Assembly (NCBI GenBank): GCA_044232745.1
Contig: JBIILI010000003.1
Coordinates: forward strand, 92,259-156,258
Reading direction: 5' to 3'
Source of the DNA: Candidatus Planktophila sp.
Lineage (GTDB): Bacteria; Actinomycetota; Actinomycetes; Nanopelagicales; Nanopelagicaceae
DNA length: 64,000 bases
Positions 6 to 56,249 of the stretch are shown here, piece by piece; positions within the stretch are counted from its first letter, which is position 1; each line of letters opens with the position of its first letter. A program made the position numbers and the translations under genes. The notes beneath the pieces were generated by a model. That model ran no database searches and was not told the DNA's origin. It saw only the letters and a list, made by a program, of their open reading frames with translations.

Positions 6-440
6 ATGGCAGCTGCTGGCTATGCAGTGGGTTGGCGTCCAACATCAGGCATATTGCAAACAACTTTGGCTTTCGTGTTCTTGTTTATGTTTGGGTACGC
101 ACTATCTTGGATTGGCATTTTGGTTGGCCTGTCAGTTAAAGAAGCACGCACAGTTCAAAGCGTTGGATTTTTGGTTACCTTCCCGCTGACATTCCTATCT
201 AACGCCTTTGCACCAACTACCGGAATGCCTCGCGCGTTGCAGTACTTTGCCGAATGGAACCCTGTTTCAACAATGGTTGCGGCCTGTCGTCAATTGTTTG
301 GCTTAAAAAATGAATTCGGTGCGACAGCGGATTCATGGCCAAGCCAGTACCCACTTGAAACCTCATTGCTGTACATGGTCCTTTTGATGGTGATCTTTAT
401 TCCGCTAAGTATTAGAAAGTATAAAAACTTTTCTAGTTAA
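6..440 (+). CDS. ABC-2 type exporter permease (DrrB/NodJ family), 5'-truncated by the window edge
   Basis: Hydrophobic helices, FLSNAFAPTTGMP..L..FAEWNPVS motif typical of ABC-2 membrane subunits. Confidence 0.85.
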   Translation: MAAAGYAVGWRPTSGILQTTLAFVFLFMFGYALSWIGILVGLSVKEARTVQSVGFLVTFPLTFLSNAFAPTTGMPRALQYFAEWNPVSTMVAACRQLFGLKNEFGATADSWPSQYPLETSLLYMVLLMVIFIPLSIRKYKNFSS

Positions 441-451
441 GCGCCTCAAAA

Positions 452-811
452 TTACTGAGTTTTACCAAGGAAATGGTGATGAAATTTGGAGTCCCAGTTA
501 TTCCTAATTTCTGCAATTGCTTCGCCATCCTGACTCATAGGAAAGACGCTGCCTTCAATCTTTCCTCCTAAAAGAGTCAATAGAGCAATCAAATCCCCAT
601 TTCTCTTTACATGTTCAAAAACTCCTTCCGGTGTTTCGAACTCTTCCAAAACGGTGCAGCGAGTCTTTTCTGGATTAAAGAACATGTCATATCGAAGAGT
701 AGATTCTTGTTGCTGTATTGCTTTCATCAATTCAGTGGCGACCAAGCAGAATTGCTCTAAATCGCCAGGTGCTATGTGAGGGAAAATCGCCACTGCACGG
801 AAGGTATTCAT
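452..811 (-). CDS. Antibiotic-biosynthesis-monooxygenase-like (dimeric alpha+beta barrel) protein
   Basis: About 119 aa; pattern F..VA.EL...IQQQE.TLRYDMF....CTVLEEFE resembles ABM proteins; start moved to ATG 811, preceded by RBS AGGAG. Confidence 0.55.
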   Translation of the reverse strand: MNTFRAVAIFPHIAPGDLEQFCLVATELMKAIQQQESTLRYDMFFNPEKTRCTVLEEFETPEGVFEHVKRNGDLIALLTLLGGKIEGSVFPMSQDGEAIAEIRNNWDSKFHHHFLGKTQ

Positions 812-854
812 GGCTCTCCTTGTAAATTGATGCAAAGGTATTTACCCTTTACTA

Positions 855-1907
855 GTGTCAGATTTCTACCCTAAAGCAAGTAAAACTATAGTCGGGCACA
901 AAGCTGTTCGTGAAGCACTTCGAGATACACAAACTTATTCATCAGACTTGCAGGGTGATTCCGATGTTCGCGATTACCGCCAATTGCCGCTTGAAGTTGA
1001 TCCACCGAGGCACCACCTATATCGAGTTGCCTTAGCGCCATACTTTGTTAAACCATCAATCGAATTATTGATTCCACAATTTCGTGCCCACACTGAACAA
1101 CTGATCGCTAATTTCTTTAAACATGGGGATCTTGAAGTCGGCCAACATTTATCGCTTCCCTTGGTTATGAATAATTTAGGTGTTATCTATAGCCGCCCTC
1201 AAGACGTCGATGAATGGATTTCGTGGGGACCAGATGTCTGGACTGCAGAGTCTGAAGTACGCGACGGCAAGGTTTTGCATCGTTACCTGGATGCAATTTA
1301 TGAAGAGGCGTTACACAAGGATAAAGCTGACATCTGGAACCAGATTGCACACCTTGAAATCGAAGGACAACAAATTTCTGCTGCTGAATTTAGAGGCATT
1401 GCCGGCGTGATGTTGGCGGGCGGCCGAGATACAGTTGTAAAACTCTTTACCGGAATCATGTGGCACTTTGGTAATAAACCTCAAGACCTTGAACTATTGC
1501 GCTCACATCCAGAGTTAATAAGCCCTGCTATTCAAGAGTTCTTACGATTCTTCACTCCGCTACCTGTCATGAACAGAACGGTTGTGCCAGAAAGTACTAC
1601 AGCTGATCTTCCCGATGATAGGTATGTCGGAATCAGTTTTATTTCGGGCAACTTTGATGAAACAGTTTTCACTAATCCTTTTGAGATCGATTTTAATCGT
1701 GGCCGAAATCCCCATTTAAGCTTTGGCTTTGGCCCTCACACCTGTTTAGGAAACCATATTGCAGAAATCGAAGCCAAGGTCTTTCTAGAGGCTTTGTTAA
1801 GTTCGGGCAAAAACTGGAGAGTTTCTTCTGAAGATATTCGCTATCACCAAGCACCGTATACAAAAATTCCCGATCACCTTAGCGCTGTCAAGATTGTCCA
1901 AATTTAG
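855..1907 (+). CDS. Cytochrome P450
   Basis: DPPRH, I-helix AGGRDT, K-helix EFLR (ExxR), heme motif FGFGPHTCLG; GTG start 7 nt after TACCCT. Confidence 0.93.
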   Translation: MSDFYPKASKTIVGHKAVREALRDTQTYSSDLQGDSDVRDYRQLPLEVDPPRHHLYRVALAPYFVKPSIELLIPQFRAHTEQLIANFFKHGDLEVGQHLSLPLVMNNLGVIYSRPQDVDEWISWGPDVWTAESEVRDGKVLHRYLDAIYEEALHKDKADIWNQIAHLEIEGQQISAAEFRGIAGVMLAGGRDTVVKLFTGIMWHFGNKPQDLELLRSHPELISPAIQEFLRFFTPLPVMNRTVVPESTTADLPDDRYVGISFISGNFDETVFTNPFEIDFNRGRNPHLSFGFGPHTCLGNHIAEIEAKVFLEALLSSGKNWRVSSEDIRYHQAPYTKIPDHLSAVKIVQI

Positions 1908-3125
1908 CTATTTTGATTGGTAGTTAACACTATTCAAAACCAGTTGTACATAAGTCATGTCTGCCCACGAAAACCATGATCTCGTAAAATCTTTATCGTT
2001 ACTAACATTAAAGGACTCATGCATGTTTCCGGTCCCAGCATCAGTATGTTCTAGTAAATCTAAGGCTTCTAACTTTTTGCTGATCGATGAATCGGTTAAG
2101 GCTTGAACAGCAAGTGCAATTGGCCAAACAAATCCAGTCGGTGTGTGCTGTGAGCCAATTCCTGCGGCTTTTGTACCTGAAAAGTAATAGGGATTTTTAC
2201 CGGAAAGAATGAACTCTCTAGTTGCTTTATAGGATTCATCCTCAGCTGAGATACACCCTAAAAGCGGAAGGCTCAGCAAGGATGGAATATTTGCATCATC
2301 AATGAACAATGCATTTCCAAGCCCATCGACTTCATATGCAAAGCGTCCATGATTGATTGCAAACTCTTGTATACCTTTTCGAATGTCGGTACTTAAATCA
2401 TTAGATTCTGGTGACTTGAGATTTTCTGGCAATAGCTCTAATTCATTCAGAAAAAAGAGATTTGAAGGAACAAGATAGCCGTACACACAGGCATCATCAC
2501 TTGGACGGAAGGCGGAATAGACCATACCCGTGTATGCCGTTGGTGCTCCACGACCATTATGCGATAACGAATCATGAGGTACTTCATTGTTACGTTTAAA
2601 TATGTACGACTCTGGATCATGGTGTTGTTCGCGCTTAGCAAGTTCTAACATGACTCTGAGTGCTTCCTTGAAGGAGGCATTGATATGGTCAGTACGACCA
2701 TATTTTTCAATAATCATTCGTGCCAGATATAAAACTGAAGCCCATGAATCTAGCTCGAACTTTCGCTCGAACACCCAAGGAGATTGATTAGGAAAGTCTT
2801 TATGCCAGCACTCGCCATTAGGGGCAGGATTAAATGCATTTGCGTATGGATCAAGCAGGAAGAGCTCTACCTGCGTCTTGCTTAATTCAATAAGTAATTG
2901 AATTACCTCTGAATGGTTAGAATTCAACAGTGGTGCAACTTGCCAAGTTGAATCGCGTAACCACATTGCCGGAATATCACCGGTGATGATGAATGGACTC
3001 CCGTTTTCACGCCTGGTTAAACTCTTGTTGAATAATGAATCTATTGCGATCGAAACACGCTTAAATCGCGAATCTGGTACTTGAGAATCTAAGCCGGGAA
3101 ATACTTCTCTGGCTGTTAAGTTCAT
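1908..3125 (-). CDS. Glycoside hydrolase family 125 (exo-alpha-1,6-mannosidase-like)
   Basis: TGDIPAMWLRDS, ERKFELDS, DDANIPSLL, MHESF, FTRSWFSWA motifs. Confidence 0.9.
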   Translation of the reverse strand: MNLTAREVFPGLDSQVPDSRFKRVSIAIDSLFNKSLTRRENGSPFIITGDIPAMWLRDSTWQVAPLLNSNHSEVIQLLIELSKTQVELFLLDPYANAFNPAPNGECWHKDFPNQSPWVFERKFELDSWASVLYLARMIIEKYGRTDHINASFKEALRVMLELAKREQHHDPESYIFKRNNEVPHDSLSHNGRGAPTAYTGMVYSAFRPSDDACVYGYLVPSNLFFLNELELLPENLKSPESNDLSTDIRKGIQEFAINHGRFAYEVDGLGNALFIDDANIPSLLSLPLLGCISAEDESYKATREFILSGKNPYYFSGTKAAGIGSQHTPTGFVWPIALAVQALTDSSISKKLEALDLLEHTDAGTGNMHESFNVSNDKDFTRSWFSWADMTYVQLVLNSVNYQSK

Positions 3126-3143
3126 GAACCTTAGAACTTTAGG

Positions 3144-3617
3144 TTAGGCGTAAAACTCGGCGGCCACAATTTCAACCGAGATCTCGCGACCATTAGGTGC
3201 TGTGTAAGAAACCTTTGCGCCAATTTCTTGATTCAGCACCGCTGAACCAAGTGGCGACTTTTCGCTGTACACATCTAGATCTCCGGATGAAATTTCACGG
3301 GATCCAATTAAAAACTTCATTTCATCTCCGGCGATAATGGCTGTAACAACCATTCCTGCGCCAACTTTTCCATCGGCGCTGGCTGGTGGAGTTCCGATGT
3401 GTGCGTTTTCCAACATCTGCTTTAGCTGACGAATACGCGCCTCCATTTTGCCTTGCTCATCACGTGCTGCGTGGTATCCGCCATTTTCTTTCAAGTCACC
3501 TTCGGCACGTGCTGCTTCAATCTTGGCAGTTACTTCTTTTCGGCCAGGACCTTCTAGCTGCGTCAGCTCGGATTGCAAGCGATCAGCAGCTTCTTGGGTC
3601 AGCCAGGTCTGTGTCAT
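3144..3617 (-). CDS. greA: Transcription elongation factor GreA
   Basis: WLTQEA..RLQSEL, ARAEGDLKENGGYHAAR, SPLG; start moved to ATG 3617. Confidence 0.96.
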   Translation of the reverse strand: MTQTWLTQEAADRLQSELTQLEGPGRKEVTAKIEAARAEGDLKENGGYHAARDEQGKMEARIRQLKQMLENAHIGTPPASADGKVGAGMVVTAIIAGDEMKFLIGSREISSGDLDVYSEKSPLGSAVLNQEIGAKVSYTAPNGREISVEIVAAEFYA

Positions 3618-3640
3618 AAGGGGTAAAAGGTACTGGTTAC

Positions 3641-4030
3641 TTACTTGACGCGACAAGTTGAAACATCAGCATTTACTGCCTGACTACGCGTAGGAACCAC
3701 GCTGACCAGTTCAACTTTTTCTTTTCCTGCCGGAACTTCTACATCAATTTGTCCAACGATGTCTTTATAGAAATCACGTGCAATTACAGTGCAGATGCTT
3801 GCTGTATCCGCACTATTTCGATCAACGAAATATCGAACACTGACCGCTCGATCACTATCGACGGTAAATGAAATCAACTGAACACGAATCTGTGGGTTTG
3901 AGTGATACAACCCAGCCCATGTAACCCAGCCAACTCCAACTATTGCTGTGATTAGGGCAATGGCAATCCAGCTACGCGGCTTTTTCACGCCATAGCGGTC
4001 GTTGTAGTCAAACGGCTCTTGGGATTGCAT
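3641..4030 (-). CDS. DUF4307-family membrane-anchored protein
   Basis: RYG motif then one TM helix and a beta-rich domain with two Cys; conserved neighbour of greA in actinobacteria. Confidence 0.8.
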   Translation of the reverse strand: MQSQEPFDYNDRYGVKKPRSWIAIALITAIVGVGWVTWAGLYHSNPQIRVQLISFTVDSDRAVSVRYFVDRNSADTASICTVIARDFYKDIVGQIDVEVPAGKEKVELVSVVPTRSQAVNADVSTCRVK

Positions 4031-4044
4031 GCCATGATTATGTC

Positions 4045-4179
4045 ATGACTAAAGACATTGATATGGGTGCGGCCGGCTCACTAACCGTAGCCTTGCTAGT
4101 CCTGGCTTTTGCATTCTTGATGCGAAGTTTCTATAAGCGCTTCATGGGTGTAGATCGAAGCGATGACTCCAGCAAGTAA
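4045..4179 (+). CDS. Small single-pass membrane protein, 44 aa (not in ORF track)
   Basis: Hand translation MTKDIDMGAAGSLTVALLVLAFAFLMRSFYKRFMGVDRSDDSSK; CATGAT 6 nt upstream of ATG; 3' end overlaps the SURF1 start. Confidence 0.75.
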   Translation: MTKDIDMGAAGSLTVALLVLAFAFLMRSFYKRFMGVDRSDDSSK

Positions 4180-4873
4180 ATTCCTTACCAAAGCATTACA
4201 AGCAGTTGCGGTTTTATTGCTAGCCGCAATTTTTGTTGGGCTTGGTATTTGGCAGCTACAACGTGCTGCTGAATTAAAAGAAAGTCTGAAAGTTGCAACA
4301 ACAATTGATACAAGAATTGTCCCTTTAGAATCTGTTGCTACGCCTCGAGTATCTTTACCCCCATCCGCACTTAATAAAACAGTTTTTGTCACGGGGCAGT
4401 ACATACAAAACTTTAGAGCTCCCAATCAGATCGATGGCGATGGAAAGCAATCTGATTGGGAAGTTGCTTTGCTACAGGTCGGTACAGATTCTGCAATATT
4501 GGTTGTTCGTGGATTGTGGGCTGAGCGTTTAAAGAATCCTGACATTCAGCAGTCGATGAAAATCGAAATTGAAGGATTGCTCGTTGCCAGCCAATATGGT
4601 GATCGTTCAGAAAATACACCGGGCGTAATCTCCCGTCTTGATAGCGCAGTTGTTACATCACTAACAGAACTAGATTTATATGATGGTTATATATTGGCCA
4701 GCAGCGAAGCGACCAGAATTGGATCACTAGATCGAACCCGAGTCACACCAGAAAAGCTGACCTCGCGAATCCCAGGTTTCTATTGGCAGCATCTTTCATA
4801 TGTGGTCATTTGGTGGCTAATGGCCGCTGTTGTGCTGTTCCTGCCCTTCTATCGTCGTAGAGTTACCCCATGA
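4163..4873 (+). CDS. SURF1 family protein
   Basis: N-terminal TM with LGIWQLQRA, VVRG, C-terminal HLSYVVIWW TM. Confidence 0.88.
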   Translation: MTPASKFLTKALQAVAVLLLAAIFVGLGIWQLQRAAELKESLKVATTIDTRIVPLESVATPRVSLPPSALNKTVFVTGQYIQNFRAPNQIDGDGKQSDWEVALLQVGTDSAILVVRGLWAERLKNPDIQQSMKIEIEGLLVASQYGDRSENTPGVISRLDSAVVTSLTELDLYDGYILASSEATRIGSLDRTRVTPEKLTSRIPGFYWQHLSYVVIWWLMAAVVLFLPFYRRRVTP

Positions 4874-49473: not shown

Positions 49474-49499
49474 GGAATTAAACGACCTGCGAAATTGTT
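49474..49499 (+). promoter_or_regulatory. SigR/SigH-type promoter of the DUF2342 gene
   Basis: GGAAT-N18-GTT exact match; the predicted start site lies just before RBS GGGAGG. Confidence 0.7.
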
Positions 49500-49521
49500 C
49501 CAATGCTGGGAGGATTCAACT

Positions 49522-50829
49522 ATGACGCCATTTGGTTTCAATCCAGGAGATTCAGAGGACTCTAACGAGCCAGTTGATTTTGCTGCCATGATGGAACAGA
49601 TGCAACGACAGATTCAAGAACAATTTTCAAAGCTTGGAATAAATGGTCCTGGGTTTACTGGATCATCTGAGCCACTACCTAAAAACATTGTTAGGGACAC
49701 CGCAAAGAAATTCACAACTGCGCAAGGCTCTTCTCCAGTTAGCGCCAATGATGTTTCAGAGATTGAACAAGCATTGTCGATTGCAGAGCTCTGGCTTGAT
49801 GAAGCAACTTTTTTCCCGAAGTCTCCAAACACCGGAAATGTTGCCCTAGCACGCACCGACTGGGTTGATACGACTTTGCCGGGATGGCAAACATCGGTTG
49901 AACCATTGGCGCTGGGTTTGTCGTCAGCGATTGGTGAATTATTAAACCAAGCTTCAATTGGCGAAGGCGAAGGCTCTGAAACTCCTGCAGATGAACAATC
50001 TGAGATGCAGATTCCGGTGGGGATGATTTCAGCGCTTCTAAACTCATTTATAGGTTCTCTTGTTGCAACTCAGTTGGGACAAGCGATTGGCTTGCTATCA
50101 GGAAAGGTCACTGGTGCTCATGATGTGGGCCTTCCGCTTGTTGATTCTGCATATCCAACACTGGTTCCACAAAACATTAGGGAATGGGCTATAGATTTAG
50201 ATATTCCAATGGATGAGGTTCGAATCTTCCATGCATTACGAGAAGCTGCAGTTGCACGTTTATTTGCACACAATCCGTGGCTCGTGTCATATATCCGAAC
50301 CGCAATTACTGAATACGGTAAGGGAATCAATATTGATTTGGATGCTATTCAAGATCAAGCGCAACGAGCATTTGAATCTGGCAACGGATTTGATCCTTCA
50401 AACCCAGAAAGCTTCAGTATCGCTCTCAATGAAGGAATCTTTACTCCTCAAGAATCACCGGCACAGCGCGCTGCCTTAACTAAATTGGAAACGGTGTTGG
50501 CACTAATTGACGGTTGGAGTGAAGAGGTCGTTGCAATGGCTGCAGGGGATCGATTGCCAAACATCGCTGCACTTCAAGAAACTCTGCGCCGACGTCGTGC
50601 AACTTCTGCACCAGCACAACAGTTATTTTCTTCAATGCTTGGATTACAAGTTTCTCCGCGACTTGCCCGGGAAGCAACTGTGTTTTGGAGAAAAGTTTGT
50701 GAACTTAAAGATGTTGAATCACGCGATCGAATCTGGAGTGGAATTCTTCCCACCGCCGAAGATTTGTTGACACCTGAGAGTTTTGTGAAGAGCTTAGAGA
50801 TTCCTGATGACTTGTCGGGATTGATCTAA
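49522..50829 (+). CDS. Zinc-dependent metalloprotease-like protein (DUF2342 family)
   Basis: R.DWVDTTL, ALREAA..RLF.H.PWL, LETVLALIDGW, RRRRAT, LGLQVSP; start ATG 49522. Confidence 0.88.
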   Translation: MTPFGFNPGDSEDSNEPVDFAAMMEQMQRQIQEQFSKLGINGPGFTGSSEPLPKNIVRDTAKKFTTAQGSSPVSANDVSEIEQALSIAELWLDEATFFPKSPNTGNVALARTDWVDTTLPGWQTSVEPLALGLSSAIGELLNQASIGEGEGSETPADEQSEMQIPVGMISALLNSFIGSLVATQLGQAIGLLSGKVTGAHDVGLPLVDSAYPTLVPQNIREWAIDLDIPMDEVRIFHALREAAVARLFAHNPWLVSYIRTAITEYGKGINIDLDAIQDQAQRAFESGNGFDPSNPESFSIALNEGIFTPQESPAQRAALTKLETVLALIDGWSEEVVAMAAGDRLPNIAALQETLRRRRATSAPAQQLFSSMLGLQVSPRLAREATVFWRKVCELKDVESRDRIWSGILPTAEDLLTPESFVKSLEIPDDLSGLI

Positions 50830-50849
50830 TTCATCCAACTTTAACTTGG

Positions 50850-50932
50850 AAATAGAAAAGCGAACTCCCCGGTCACTTGCTCTAAATCAGCCTTCCCCTT
50901 GCTGATGTAGAACTGTTATCCGAGGAGTTCGT
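50850..50932 (-). ncRNA. Candidate small RNA, a single long hairpin with U-tail
   Basis: -35 TTGATA, 17 nt, -10 TACTTT, predicted +1 at the first stem base; stem ends in TTTTCTATTT. Confidence 0.7.
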
Positions 50933-50938
50933 AGTCGT

Positions 50939-50967
50939 AAAGTAAGTCTTTGACATGGGTTTATCAA
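50939..50967 (-). promoter_or_regulatory. Housekeeping-sigma promoter for the candidate sRNA
   Basis: TTGATA (50967-62), N17, TACTTT (50944-39). Confidence 0.6.
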
Positions 50968-51068
50968 CTCGGCACCGCGTTGACAAAGGATAATTTCTTG
51001 AGGTAGTGCATCTTCATGTGCTGGCCCTTTTCATTGAAATCGACAAGACTCGCACCCGCATATGGTGA

Positions 51069-51093
51069 ATCTCTCAAGGTTTAGTTGAGAGAT
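51069..51093. promoter_or_regulatory. Perfect inverted repeat over the M48 gene promoter
   Basis: ATCTCTCAA-N7-TTGAGAGAT, 4 nt upstream of -10 TAACAT (51098-103), which lies 6 nt before ATG. Confidence 0.5.
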
Positions 51094-51109
51094 GACATAA
51101 CATTTCAGA

Positions 51110-51736
51110 ATGAGCCAGTCTGAACAGACCAACGGATTCCTAGAGCCATCCTTAGTTGAGTCAACCCTTGAGGAGCACACCCTTCCTGGAATCTCGGAGG
51201 GCGAAATTATTGTCATCAGATCTACGCGCCGAAAGAAAAACATTTCCGCATATCGTCAGGGCGGTCGAATAGTTGTCTCGATTCCAGCCAGAATGAGCAA
51301 GGCTGATGAGCGTGCGATGGTGCCTGAAATGGTTGCCAAAATCCGTGCTCAAGAGGCAGCGGCGACGATGAGCGAGGCGAGCCTTTCCAATCGCGTGGGC
51401 GAACTATTGAGCGAGCTCGCCCCAGAAATCACGATCCGCCCGTCGGCCGTGAATTGGCGGGCTATGCGCGAGCGCTGGGGTTCATGCACGGGCGCAGATC
51501 GCTCGATACGGATTTCTGACCGCTTGAAGGGTGCCCCCGAGCACGTGCTTGATTACGTCCTGTTCCATGAGGCGATCCACCTGCAGTTCTTCGACCATGG
51601 GCCTGAATTCAAGGAGCTTCTCGCCCGTTTCCCGCGTGAAGAGGCGGCTGAGGCGTATTTGAGCGGGTATGAGGCTGCTGAAAACGCGCTCACCGCCCCA
51701 GAAGCGCTAAAAAAACTCCTAAATAAAGGTGCCTAG
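51110..51736 (+). CDS. M48/YgjP (DUF45)-family metallopeptidase domain protein
   Basis: RSTRRKK, RWGSCT, IRISDRL, DYVLFHEAIHL..DHG..F. Confidence 0.88.
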   Translation: MSQSEQTNGFLEPSLVESTLEEHTLPGISEGEIIVIRSTRRKKNISAYRQGGRIVVSIPARMSKADERAMVPEMVAKIRAQEAAATMSEASLSNRVGELLSELAPEITIRPSAVNWRAMRERWGSCTGADRSIRISDRLKGAPEHVLDYVLFHEAIHLQFFDHGPEFKELLARFPREEAAEAYLSGYEAAENALTAPEALKKLLNKGA

Positions 51737-51839
51737 ATACGCTTGTTTAAGCGTGTTCAGGGGTAGCCTCATACACGAACGCCTGCCCCACACGGGGAGC
51801 AATCCCGAAGGGATCGCAAGCGTCGATAGGAGGAAAAGA

Positions 51840-52004
51840 ATGACTGCAGAGACATACAAAGGTGACGCTTACTGCGTTAAGTGCAAAGAGAAGCGTGATT
51901 TCGAAGGAACTGTAAAGGTTTCTGACTCTGGTCGTCGCATGGCACAAGGCATCTGCCCAGTGTGTGGCACCAAGGTCAATCGTATTCTTGGCAAAGCCCA
52001 GTAA
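51840..52004 (+). CDS. DUF5679-like small zinc-ribbon protein, 54 aa
   Basis: AYCVKCKEKR...GRRMAQGICPVCGTKVNRILGK; strong RBS AGGAGG. Confidence 0.88.
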   Translation: MTAETYKGDAYCVKCKEKRDFEGTVKVSDSGRRMAQGICPVCGTKVNRILGKAQ

Positions 52005-55877: not shown

Positions 55878-56249
55878 GGGGGTGAACGGTCTCGACTTTG
55901 GATGTTGAGGCAGGGGAAGCGGGCCGAGGAAGCCGGAATGATCTCGTAAACCAATAATCCGTGCAAAAAATAACTGCAGACCTTAAAAAGTCTGAATTCT
56001 CACTAGCTGCATAAGCTACTGTGATTCCGTTAGCCCAGGTGCCGCTCTCGACCTGGAATCTAGCGTCGACTAGGGGGCTTTTCACTTCATTGGTGTTGCA
56101 GACGATGAAGGAGAACATTTTTGCAACTGAGTTCGTCGAAGATATGTGTGTAAAAACTTCGGGACTGAGAAAGCGTTAATCACACTACGCCCGTAGAAGC
56201 CCTGTTTGAATACCGAAGGACCCGGGTTCGATTCCCGGCACCTCCACCA
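55878..56249 (+). ncRNA. ssrA: tmRNA
   Basis: 5' GGGGGTGAACGG; 3' GGTTCGATTCCCGGCACCTCCACCA with G3:U; tag frame 55976-56014 (A)ADLKKSEFSLAA*. Confidence 0.97.

Follow-up and report, generated by a model that had tools for sequence, protein, structure and literature searches.

A predicted small RNA with an invariant purine loop, encoded divergently from a YgjP-like gene in Actinomycetota

Described small RNAs and the locus in Candidatus Planktophila

To our knowledge, few small RNAs (sRNAs) are conserved across Actinomycetota, and we know of no Hfq, ProQ or CsrA in this phylum. The classic conserved actinobacterial sRNA is 6C (RF01066; B11 in mycobacteria), for which years passed before targets were linked. 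The RNA described here was predicted in 64,000 nucleotides of Candidatus Planktophila sp. (the window, meaning the whole stretch of DNA that was analyzed). Like 6C, it is a small stand-alone RNA found across Actinobacteria, with its own promoter (here predicted), and in both RNAs the conserved and, in the new RNA, putatively functional part is a hairpin loop suited to G/C-rich pairing that depends on neither Hfq nor ProQ (PMC6486639). For mycobacteria, chaperone-independent pairing between C-rich loops of sRNAs and G-rich loops that are unpaired has been described (PMC6486639). 6C differs in that its two or three hairpins present C-rich loops to G-rich mRNA sites, whereas one long hairpin with a loop of the opposite polarity (G-rich) is found here, in another genomic context and without an Rfam match.

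The small SRP RNA (4.5S or scRNA, RF00169) is likewise a molecule of ~80-110 nt with strong sequence conservation, whose one extended imperfect hairpin contains internal loops and a conserved apex. In contrast to it, the new hairpin lacks a GNRA tetraloop as well as conserved loop motifs, whether symmetric or asymmetric, gives no covariance-model match and is not abundant in metatranscriptomes. Its length of ~83 nt, its single-hairpin form resembling 4.5S/scRNA and its very high sequence conservation could nevertheless indicate a divergent SRP 4.5S RNA, 6S/Ms1, 6C or Y RNA that is overlooked by the Rfam models. This is extremely improbable in view of the searches: no family matched the whole window in Rfam 15 at the gathering threshold, no match (SRP clan included) was obtained at E <= 10 over 50700-51150 (451 nt), and the high-GC homologues had no match either at E <= 1. 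The initial annotation of the window, which had named a search for known Rfam families as a check and had described the SRP motif and the 6C signatures as absent, is confirmed for low-GC and high-GC versions alike: the loop comprises 9 nt and is not a GNRA tetraloop, and a single hairpin with one G-rich loop stands against the two C-rich loops of 6C. The AGCA segment of the window ('AGAGCAAG') is not conserved and reads AGAAUGAG or GAAUGUGC in the aligned relatives, and in the metatranscriptomes tmRNA and tRNA are far more abundant than the RNA. Nocardioides, which also carries the family, presumably has a canonical SRP RNA. A literature search on sRNAs of Nanopelagicales and Planktophila, on an Rv3196 sRNA and on the loop sequence yielded nothing relevant. 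As judged by comparative sequence analysis, the element is a predicted sRNA family that was not previously described, is spread across Actinomycetota and is missing from Rfam.

Two further systems share single features with the locus. The decoy RNAs CsrB and RsmZ have purine-rich, GGA-containing hairpin loops resembling a Shine-Dalgarno sequence, and a decoy function had been proposed initially because the GGA loop shows this resemblance. Sponges of this type carry many GGA loops and depend on CsrA/RsmA, whereas a single loop and one copy per locus are found here; CsrA is, as far as we know, not known in Actinobacteria. GadY-type cis-encoded RNAs are, like the new element, short RNA genes on the opposite strand between two co-oriented genes. 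In the present case, the upstream neighbor is not conserved and the loop is invariant, which is no requirement of cis-antisense pairing.

Predicted promoter, hairpin and 3′ end

On the minus strand, a -35 hexamer TTGATA (50962..50967) is separated by a 17-nt spacer from a -10 hexamer TACTTT of the TANNNT type (50939..50944), which is followed by 6 nt and A50932, the predicted +1. The RNA is predicted to comprise ~83 nt (50850..50932, minus strand), from A50932 through the U-tail, with both ends being predictions. The extended hairpin (50861..50931, minus strand; 71 nt) begins 6 nt 3′ of the -10 hexamer and consists of a 12-bp basal helix, a 5x5 internal loop and the middle and apical helices. 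Directly 3′ of the basal helix, the U-rich tail CUUUUCUAUUU (50850..50860, minus strand) resembles the 3′ end of an intrinsic terminator. Thus, the promoter-like hexamers, the hairpin and the U-tail reported in the initial annotation are all present where it had placed them.

The promoter could be followed through the relatives. TTGNNN-N17/18-TANNNT was found in 137/137 distinct upstream sequences, and the distance from the -10 end to the loop-closing pair amounts to 36-38 nt in 130 of these 137; in shuffled controls, a match to the promoter motif anywhere in 100 nt occurred in only 12%. The hexamers keep their position while the spacer sequence is variable, and the -35 reads TTGATT or TTGATA in 106/137 sequences and TTGACC or TTGACG in the high-GC members. 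A simple promoter/terminator scanner listed neither a promoter nor a terminator site here, because its rules do not accept TACTTT as a -10 and are limited to loops of <= 8 nt. The minus-strand promoter is a prediction supported by comparative data and not by the scanner.

A second conserved element faces this promoter. The plus-strand block GTTGACAAAGG (50979..50989) lies back to back with the -35 of the RNA and is conserved in 19/19 aligned Nanopelagicales loci, its TTGACA being only 12 bp away from that -35. This block might serve as the -35 of the promoter of the adjacent YgjP-like gene, as a regulator site, or as both. High-GC relatives have 3-5 TGTGGA[CT]AA boxes at the corresponding position, and we infer that they may be homologous to the block.

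The computed minimum free energy (MFE) of the hairpin is -36.9 kcal/mol (z = -6.73), and none of 200 shuffles was as stable. In this fold, a basal helix of 12 bp with one G-U pair is followed by an internal loop, 6 bp, a mismatch, 6 bp and a 9-nt apical loop AAGGGGAAG (50892-50900, minus strand), which agrees with the fold described initially. The internal loop is formed by AUAAC on the 5′ strand (50915..50919, minus strand) and AGUGA on the 3′ strand (50873..50877, minus strand). According to the alignments A1 and A3, A15, A17, A18 and C19 of the former are invariant in low-GC lineages, and G58 and G60 of the latter are conserved. A related form of the internal loop (GGGACAAC / GAGAAAAC) is present in the loci L172 and L180 and absent from L175-L179, so that the AUAAC feature is lineage-restricted. 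The U-tail shows a mixed distribution: T75-T78 are invariant in alignment A1, and a tail is found in most low-GC members as well as in L176 and L179, but L172, L175, L178 and L180 have a weak tail or none.

The strand can be told from several features. The plus-strand fold is weaker (-30.8 kcal/mol vs -36.9 kcal/mol), and the covariance model R1 reached 105 bits (minus strand) compared to 32 bits (plus strand) in the window, and 88-105 bits compared to 15-35 bits across the loci. G-U pairs are frequent (e.g., in 49/59 sequences at one basal pair) and fit the minus strand only, because the plus strand would have A-C mismatches at these sites. With R1, one copy was detected in the 64-kb window; the hairpin occurs once per locus and no copy was found in the viral contigs searched, by which an origin from a repeat or mobile element was ruled out.

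Conservation and genomic neighborhood

The element was found at the same position in 43 Nanopelagicales genome loci with 22 distinct sequences and in 72/80 metagenome loci. It was also present in 9/11 distinct loci that were reached solely via YgjP-like homologues. The 43 genome loci were selected through the Zincin_2 protein and carry the element once per locus; a first protein search with the Zincin_2 protein of the window had returned near-identical proteins only and did not widen the sampling. The loci reached via YgjP include metagenome-assembled genomes whose RNA has a GC content of 69-72%, and also Nocardioides sp. GCA_044226305.1. Hence, the restriction to a streamlined lineage that had been assumed initially does not hold, and the family extends to high-GC Actinomycetota including this Nocardioides assembly.

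The stem conservation in relatives that the initial annotation had named as a check was found together with compensatory changes. In the alignment, 94.4% of cells are paired compared to ~38% with slid partners. RNAalifold detected compensatory changes in 9/19 pairs for 59 low-GC sequences and in 15/18 pairs for the phylum-wide set, i.e., the stems are rewritten across the range. The only invariant columns of the phylum-wide alignment A4 are GCAAGGGGAAGGC, the 13 nt GC-AAGGGGAAG-GC at 50890..50902 (minus strand), which comprise the 9-nt apical loop and the two G-C pairs that close it. The same loop is shared by 43/43 protein-chosen genome loci and by 9/9 RNA-bearing loci reached via YgjP; in the 72 metagenome loci, an invariant loop was imposed by the search pattern and does not count as independent evidence. 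This conservation suggests that the invariant loop is the functional surface of the RNA. The promoter in 137/137 sequences, the compensatory changes, the minus-strand-only G-U pairs and the missing Rfam match together support the initially proposed minus-strand gene for a stand-alone structured RNA; by their conservation, its own promoter and its own 3′ end likewise indicate a stand-alone sRNA.

In the window, the hairpin is flanked by a Zincin_2 gene (PF10103; 49495-50829, plus strand) and by a gene for a YgjP-like/SprT-like metallopeptidase (PF01863 at 6.5e-23; 51110..51736, plus strand), which is divergent from the RNA. A 70-aa minus-strand ORF (51031-51243) was treated as spurious, having no Pfam match and overlapping the conserved leader and start of the YgjP-like gene. 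Wherever that side was present among the 72 metagenome loci, the YgjP-like gene is adjacent and divergent, and the pair of RNA and YgjP-like gene is kept in three gene orders of the high-GC loci, including an inversion as a unit. Judging from this synteny, the constant neighbor of the RNA is the YgjP-like gene and not Zincin_2. On the RNA strand, the downstream gene varies by lineage (Zincin_2, NUDIX, an enoyl-CoA hydratase gene or DUF5679), and a same-strand downstream gene is absent in the window and in 115 other loci. From the initial statement that the RNA is antisense to both neighbors, only the orientation is retained: the RNA need not overlap with either gene, and the neighbor that is conserved is the divergent YgjP-like gene. 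With a variable gap to Zincin_2 and the replacement of Zincin_2 as neighbor in other lineages, the locus also does not have the arrangement of a cis-antisense RNA.

The hairpin starts ~30 nt past the Zincin_2 stop codon in the window and abuts or overlaps the stop in some metagenome loci, by which it might be taken merely for a transcription terminator of Zincin_2, possibly a bidirectional one, or for a chance hairpin. This explanation is very improbable and as a Zincin_2 terminator the element was rejected, since strand, missing plus-strand U-tract and synteny contradict it. The plus strand has no U-tract after the hairpin and folds more weakly, and the G-U pairs are restricted to the minus strand, where the U-tract is located, no gene lies upstream and a promoter precedes the helix by 6 nt. 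Furthermore, the loci differ in their distance to the Zincin_2 stop (-3 to ~560 nt), the element of the high-GC relatives is not located beside Zincin_2 and moves with YgjP, the promoter distance is fixed and the loop shows no variation.

A function in cis is less easily dismissed, but still unlikely. Firing of the RNA promoter could modulate the back-to-back YgjP-like promoter via RNA polymerase competition or supercoiling, or a conditional terminator could allow read-through that yields antisense RNA into the downstream minus-strand gene; in both versions, the loop would be the site where a factor tunes termination. The back-to-back arrangement of the RNA -35 and the plus-strand TTGACA at 12 bp, the survival of the RNA-YgjP pair through rearrangements, the terminator-like hairpin with its U-tract and the regulator-like boxes flanking the promoter speak for such an element, of which a low steady-state abundance would be expected. 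However, promoter competition needs neither an invariant 13-nt loop nor a covarying 30-bp helix, and the differing downstream genes imply that an antisense target is not conserved. There is also no room for an antiterminator 5′ of the hairpin, because the helix starts 1-2 nt after the +1; together with the mostly missing same-strand downstream gene, this argues against a riboswitch or leader attenuator as well.

Transcript signal and possible function of the loop

In eight lake metatranscriptomes, the RNA block had depths of 3-170, which is about the level of its flanks, and no peak was observed. This signal stems from assembled contigs that carry no strand information; no discrete contig for the hairpin was found among them, and the contigs extend beyond both predicted ends. 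The ~83-nt transcript proposed initially is not reflected in these data as a peak or discrete contig, although its sequence is carried by the contigs. A 74-nt tRNA was captured by the same libraries, one tRNA is present as discrete 78-nt contigs (depths 26 and 460), and the tRNA depth summed over all contigs was 200-4400; tmRNA reached 2e4-3e5. A similar, approximately five-fold depth rise over the hairpin block in DNA metagenomes is attributed to the collapse of many strains onto the conserved sequence. A nearby small gene of 54 aa is strongly expressed, with depths of 2000-4800.

The reading we consider best, with a probability of about 40%, is that of an independently transcribed, trans-acting small non-coding RNA of ~80-85 nt whose loop pairs with C/U-rich partners. 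A housekeeping-type promoter TTGNNN-N17-TANNNT would start the RNA 6-7 nt before the single long imperfect hairpin, and the basal helix with the U-tract would end the transcript in most members. As nearly all of the molecule is helical, the only constant accessible surface would be the 9-nt purine loop AAGGGGAAG on its two fixed G-C pairs. It may pair in trans with C/U-rich single-stranded partners, ideally 5′-CUUCCCCUU-3′ or its core. Possible partners are the C-rich loops of actinobacterial sRNAs like 6C, leader segments rich in C or the anti-Shine-Dalgarno sequence of the 16S rRNA, and the RNA would be active as a regulator or a decoy/sponge. Accumulation of the transcript, its end positions, its action in trans and its binding partner are accordingly all given here as predictions.

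The partner searches, made in the window and in the DUF5679 leaders, yielded no partner. Pairing with a C-run accounts for the GGGG of the loop and not for the invariant flanking A residues, and pairing with the anti-Shine-Dalgarno sequence amounts to only 6 bp, one of them G-U. Sites complementary to the loop are present in the window at chance level (17 vs 10.8 +/- 3.3 expected), and the duplex of the loop and the DUF5679 leader (-8.1 kcal/mol) is barely more stable than that with shuffled leaders (-7.2). An RNAduplex target prediction against all start regions of the window was discarded, as it yielded meaningless full-length duplexes when accessibility was disregarded. In several lineages, a CU(U/G)CCCC motif is located near -60 of the DUF5679 leaders, which is a weak lead.

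Recognition by a protein fits the invariance of the loop, the closing pairs and the internal loop equally well. The RNA might be an RNP subunit or a protein decoy, with the loop and closing pairs, and in some lineages the internal loop, as recognition site; we regard this as somewhat unlikely. Candidate proteins are encoded next door, namely the YgjP-like/SprT-like metallopeptidase or DUF5679, a small, basic, zinc-ribbon protein (CxxC...CxxC, rich in K and R) that is highly expressed. The 13 phylum-wide invariant nucleotides include two base pairs, and the helix sequence by the internal loop is also conserved in the low-GC lineages, a pattern that is typical of shape recognition. DUF5679 was found within the available sequence in 122/161 RNA-bearing loci, most of the other 39 being too short on that side, and it is absent along with the RNA from the YgjP loci L174 and L177, a co-absence that comprises two loci only. 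An exception is L121, where 4.4 kb past the RNA on the YgjP side contain no DUF5679. Only in L170 and L180 does DUF5679 lie directly downstream on the RNA strand, with the RNA ~110-190 nt upstream, and there the RNA could be an autoregulatory leader. Such a role is not general, since DUF5679 is located behind YgjP on the other strand in the window and in most loci. The apparently low abundance of the RNA compared to the very high DUF5679 mRNA also speaks against a protein-binding role.

TGTGGACAA boxes stand in a row beside the RNA promoter in high-GC relatives, and due to this adjoining row and the conserved divergent arrangement, the RNA and the YgjP-like gene are probably co-regulated. In a combined scenario, which is distinctly unlikely, the RNA would be a phylum-wide riboregulator whose G-rich loop is the counterpart of the C-rich loops of 6C-type sRNAs and serves as their sponge or antagonist, or else the RNA of a DUF5679 particle, with its promoter under the control of the DnaA-box-like TGTGGACAA sites. 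If this were true, post-transcriptional control would be linked to the replication or DNA-damage status, as would the divergent repair-type genes, which are YgjP/SprT-like and in some lineages also PolX-like.

At minimum, a family has been overlooked by genome annotation and by Rfam. Should its ligand be a C-rich loop of an sRNA or a small conserved protein, post-transcriptional control in the phylum would gain a further layer. The 13-nt invariant apical element is open to direct mutation, and the conserved promoter and the fixed YgjP-like partner gene add to the tractability of the system. The carriers comprise uncultured, ecologically dominant freshwater Nanopelagicales as well as lineages with cultured members (Nocardioides), which makes an experimental study feasible.

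Hairpin and fold of the predicted minus-strand RNA

The initial annotation had placed promoter-like hexamers, a hairpin and a U-rich tail on the minus strand between two plus-strand genes, and all of these were found. The flanking genes encode Zincin_2 (49495-50829) and a YgjP-like/SprT-like metallopeptidase (51110-51736). The -35 hexamer TTGATA (50967-50962) is separated by a 17-nt spacer from the -10 hexamer TACTTT (50944-50939), the predicted +1, A50932, lies six nt further on, and the hairpin (50931-50861) is followed by CUUUUCUAUUU. The sequence is not repeated elsewhere in the window. The computed fold of the 83-nt RNA (-36.9 kcal/mol, z = -6.73, equaled or beaten by 0 of 200 shuffles) matches the earlier description exactly: a basal helix of 12 bp that includes one G-U pair, then an internal loop, two helices of 6 bp split by a mismatch and a 9-nt apical loop, AAGGGGAAG. 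On the plus strand the fold is weaker (-30.8 kcal/mol). As the helix begins 1-2 nt past the predicted +1 and extends to the 3′ tail, the apical loop is the only constant accessible surface.

Searching the whole window with Rfam 15 revealed the tmRNA (55878-56249) and one tRNA, and nothing else. In a permissive scan of 50700-51150 (E ≤ 10), no match to the hairpin was obtained on the minus strand, the RNA's own; all five matches were far under the gathering scores, and the single one overlapping the hairpin, on the plus strand, is to a fragment of a human lncRNA. The high-GC versions described below had no Rfam match either, so that the candidate stands outside the Rfam families in its low-GC and high-GC forms alike, and by the membership tests applied it could be assigned to no known family. 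Within the finite coverage of the literature and Rfam, the predicted transcript would thus represent a new bacterial sRNA family.

Conservation, spread and gene order

By searching with the Zincin_2 protein alone, 47 genome loci were fetched, of which 46 carry real Zincin_2 relatives (59-98% identical); the remaining locus, in a Treponema MAG, is a spurious partial match of 44%. The hairpin is present on the minus strand in 43 of the 43 loci with enough downstream sequence, 14-196 nt past the Zincin_2 stop codon. At one MAG locus (L001:5333-5415), a tandem repeat of ~20-nt units (GGATTGTTGGATGAACAAGA-like) follows this stop codon, and the contig stops at that point, hiding the RNA locus. The 22 distinct RNA sequences contain a single 1-nt indel, and 94.4% of cells pair in the specified structure, versus 36-44% after shifting the partners by 1-3 columns. 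Two-sided changes occur at four pairs and G-U pairs at several positions. With a covariance model trained on these sequences, each locus yields one copy and no more, with minus-strand scores of 88-105 bits and plus-strand scores of 15-35 bits.

Metagenome contigs were scanned with a pattern, giving 80 loci, 72 of them with covariance-model matches of 60-96 bits (52 distinct sequences). The loop and some of the internal loop were specified in that pattern and so are invariant here by design; stems and promoter could vary. Without reference to the specified structure, RNAalifold predicted basal and apical helices from 59 distinct low-GC sequences; 9 of 19 pairs carry compensatory changes.

Two more protein searches were started from YgjP-like homologues and the encoding contigs looked up, without using RNA information in the sampling. 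The RNA was found in 9 of 11 distinct loci, namely the low-GC loci L168 and L181, the high-GC MAGs L170, L172, L176, L178, L179 and L180, and Nocardioides sp. GCA_044226305.1 (L175); Actinomadura namibiensis (L174) and locus L177 have none within ~3 kb of YgjP. In the high-GC members the stem sequence is wholly different, yet each has a long hairpin with the identical loop. In the phylum-wide alignment (15 sequences), invariance is confined to 13 nt, GCAAGGGGAAGGC, and 15 of 18 predicted pairs show compensatory changes. Both alignments bear out the stem conservation on which the initial annotation had made its candidate depend; its tie to a streamlined lineage has to be given up, as the RNA family extends across Actinomycetota.

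Wherever flanks are present, the metagenome loci show the order Lon-like(-)/Zincin_2(+)/RNA(-)/YgjP-like(+) without exception, even with Zincin_2 just 32-45% identical to the window copy. The region belongs to a conserved actinobacterial block, UPF0182/Lon-PDZ/Zincin_2/YgjP/DUF5679/ABC1/WhiB/UvrD. L172 has a NUDIX gene between Zincin_2 and the RNA. L170 and L180 have the RNA-YgjP pair flipped as a unit, with the RNA pointing to the DUF5679 gene. In L175-L179, the RNA diverges from a PolX-like(PHP)-YgjP operon and has an enoyl-CoA hydratase gene on its downstream side. In every gene order among the RNA-bearing YgjP-sampled loci, the RNA adjoins and diverges from the YgjP-like transcription unit, and the YgjP-like gene is its constant partner. 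A Zincin_2 terminator, a known RNA family and chance were set aside on the basis of fold, strand, Rfam, conservation and synteny.

Two observations concern the neighbouring genes. In the Nocardioides-type loci (L175:1945-2991, L176, L178, L179), the PolX-like gene with HHH_8 and PHP domains lies upstream of YgjP-like, and the gap of just 10 nt suggests an operon of DNA-repair flavour, divergent from the RNA. The window Zincin_2 ORF, called from TTG, has 444 aa and most close homologues have 435 aa; its first 9 codons (49495-49521) probably precede the actual start.

Promoter and adjacent boxes

TTGNNN-N17/18-TANNNT is present in all 137 distinct upstream sequences, and in 130 of these the -10 hexamer ends 36-38 nt ahead of the loop-closing pair; 12% of shuffled controls match anywhere in 100 nt. 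In the high-GC members, TTGAC[CG]-N17/18-TAnnnT precedes each hairpin. The hexamers are fixed in place while the spacer sequence varies, which is the strongest argument for a predicted minus-strand transcription from a fixed start. On the combined evidence of structure, strand, promoter and synteny, this is a functional RNA gene on the minus strand, with a predicted transcript.

Immediately upstream of the -35 hexamer, the high-GC loci carry 3-5 TGTGGA[CT]AA boxes in one orientation, three or four of them at 11-12 bp spacing (RNA-YgjP/PHP intergenic regions L172:3805-3950, L175:1755-1890, L176, L178, L179, L180 and L170). These are 3-5 of the 5-8 such hexamers per 5-8.7-kb locus, and an extra box with a conserved GAAGAAA tail lies close to the start of the divergent gene. 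Their reverse complement, TTGTCCACA/TTATCCACA, we take to be the DnaA-box consensus; tandem sites 11 bp apart would also fit a regulator of the OmpR family. A related element, GTTGACAAAGG (50979-50989, plus strand), occupies the same relative position in the window and is conserved throughout the aligned Nanopelagicales loci; it lies 12 bp from the -35 hexamer and faces the opposite way. About 18 nt downstream of it lies a TA(N)(N)G(C/G/A) element without the T that normally ends a -10 hexamer.

A conserved palindrome or hairpin, TCTCTCAA-N7-TTGAGAGA (51071-51093, plus strand), preceded by a conserved AAGA[CA]TCGC, lies 17 nt ahead of the YgjP-like start codon, upstream of which no Shine-Dalgarno sequence is visible in the window. 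It is kept across Planktophila-type loci, with CTCAAC...GTTGAG in more distant loci, and could be a leader structure or operator.

Expression and possible function

The RNA sequence is present in many lake metatranscriptomes, available as strandless assembled contigs with depth averaged per contig. In eight RNA runs, block depth was 3-170, similar to the flanks, and the contigs extended beyond both predicted ends; they include the sequence of the ~83-nt candidate in the initial annotation, with neither a peak over it nor a discrete contig of its own. A similar rise at the block, about five-fold, is seen in DNA-type runs and comes from the collapse of strains onto the conserved sequence. Among the controls from these RNA libraries, a 74-nt tRNA yielded discrete contigs of 78 nt in two runs (depths 26 and 460) and a summed depth reaching 200-4400, the tmRNA reached 2e4-3e5, and the DUF5679 gene, 900 nt away, was by far the top-expressed locus feature in 2 of 4 runs (2000-4800 vs 20-60 for its flanks). 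Measured against these controls, the RNA does not qualify as an abundant, stable species in the samples; the data are compatible with an sRNA of low copy number or conditional expression.

DUF5679 (51840-52004, plus strand) is a 54-aa CxxC...CxxC zinc ribbon (PF18930 in relatives), strongly conserved from low-GC through high-GC Actinomycetota. It starts at ATG 51840 behind GGAGGA, not with the listed longer GTG ORF (51729-52004), and, to judge by where contigs begin, transcription may start near 51767-51777.

To our knowledge, Actinobacteria are without Hfq and ProQ. C-rich sRNA loops, of 6C and others, pair there with unpaired G-rich sequences without a chaperone (PMC6486639). With its invariant unpaired G-rich loop, the RNA is the mirror image of these, and we prefer, with a probability of about 0.4, a model in which the loop would pair in trans with C/U-rich partners, acting as regulator or decoy. 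6C is the closest analogue in kind, being likewise a stand-alone RNA with phylum-wide conservation and functional loops, but loop polarity, architecture and genomic context all differ. Nearly as likely as trans pairing is recognition of the loop by a protein, for which DUF5679 is a candidate because it is usually near the RNA and is missing from both YgjP loci without it; locus L121, however, has the RNA and no DUF5679 nearby. If the RNA acted purely in cis at the back-to-back promoters, the synteny would be accounted for, but the invariant loop and the covarying helix would be left unexplained. Near the 5′ end of the tmRNA (55911-55919, plus strand), CAGGGGAAG matches the RNA loop at 8 of 9 positions, which is probably a coincidence.
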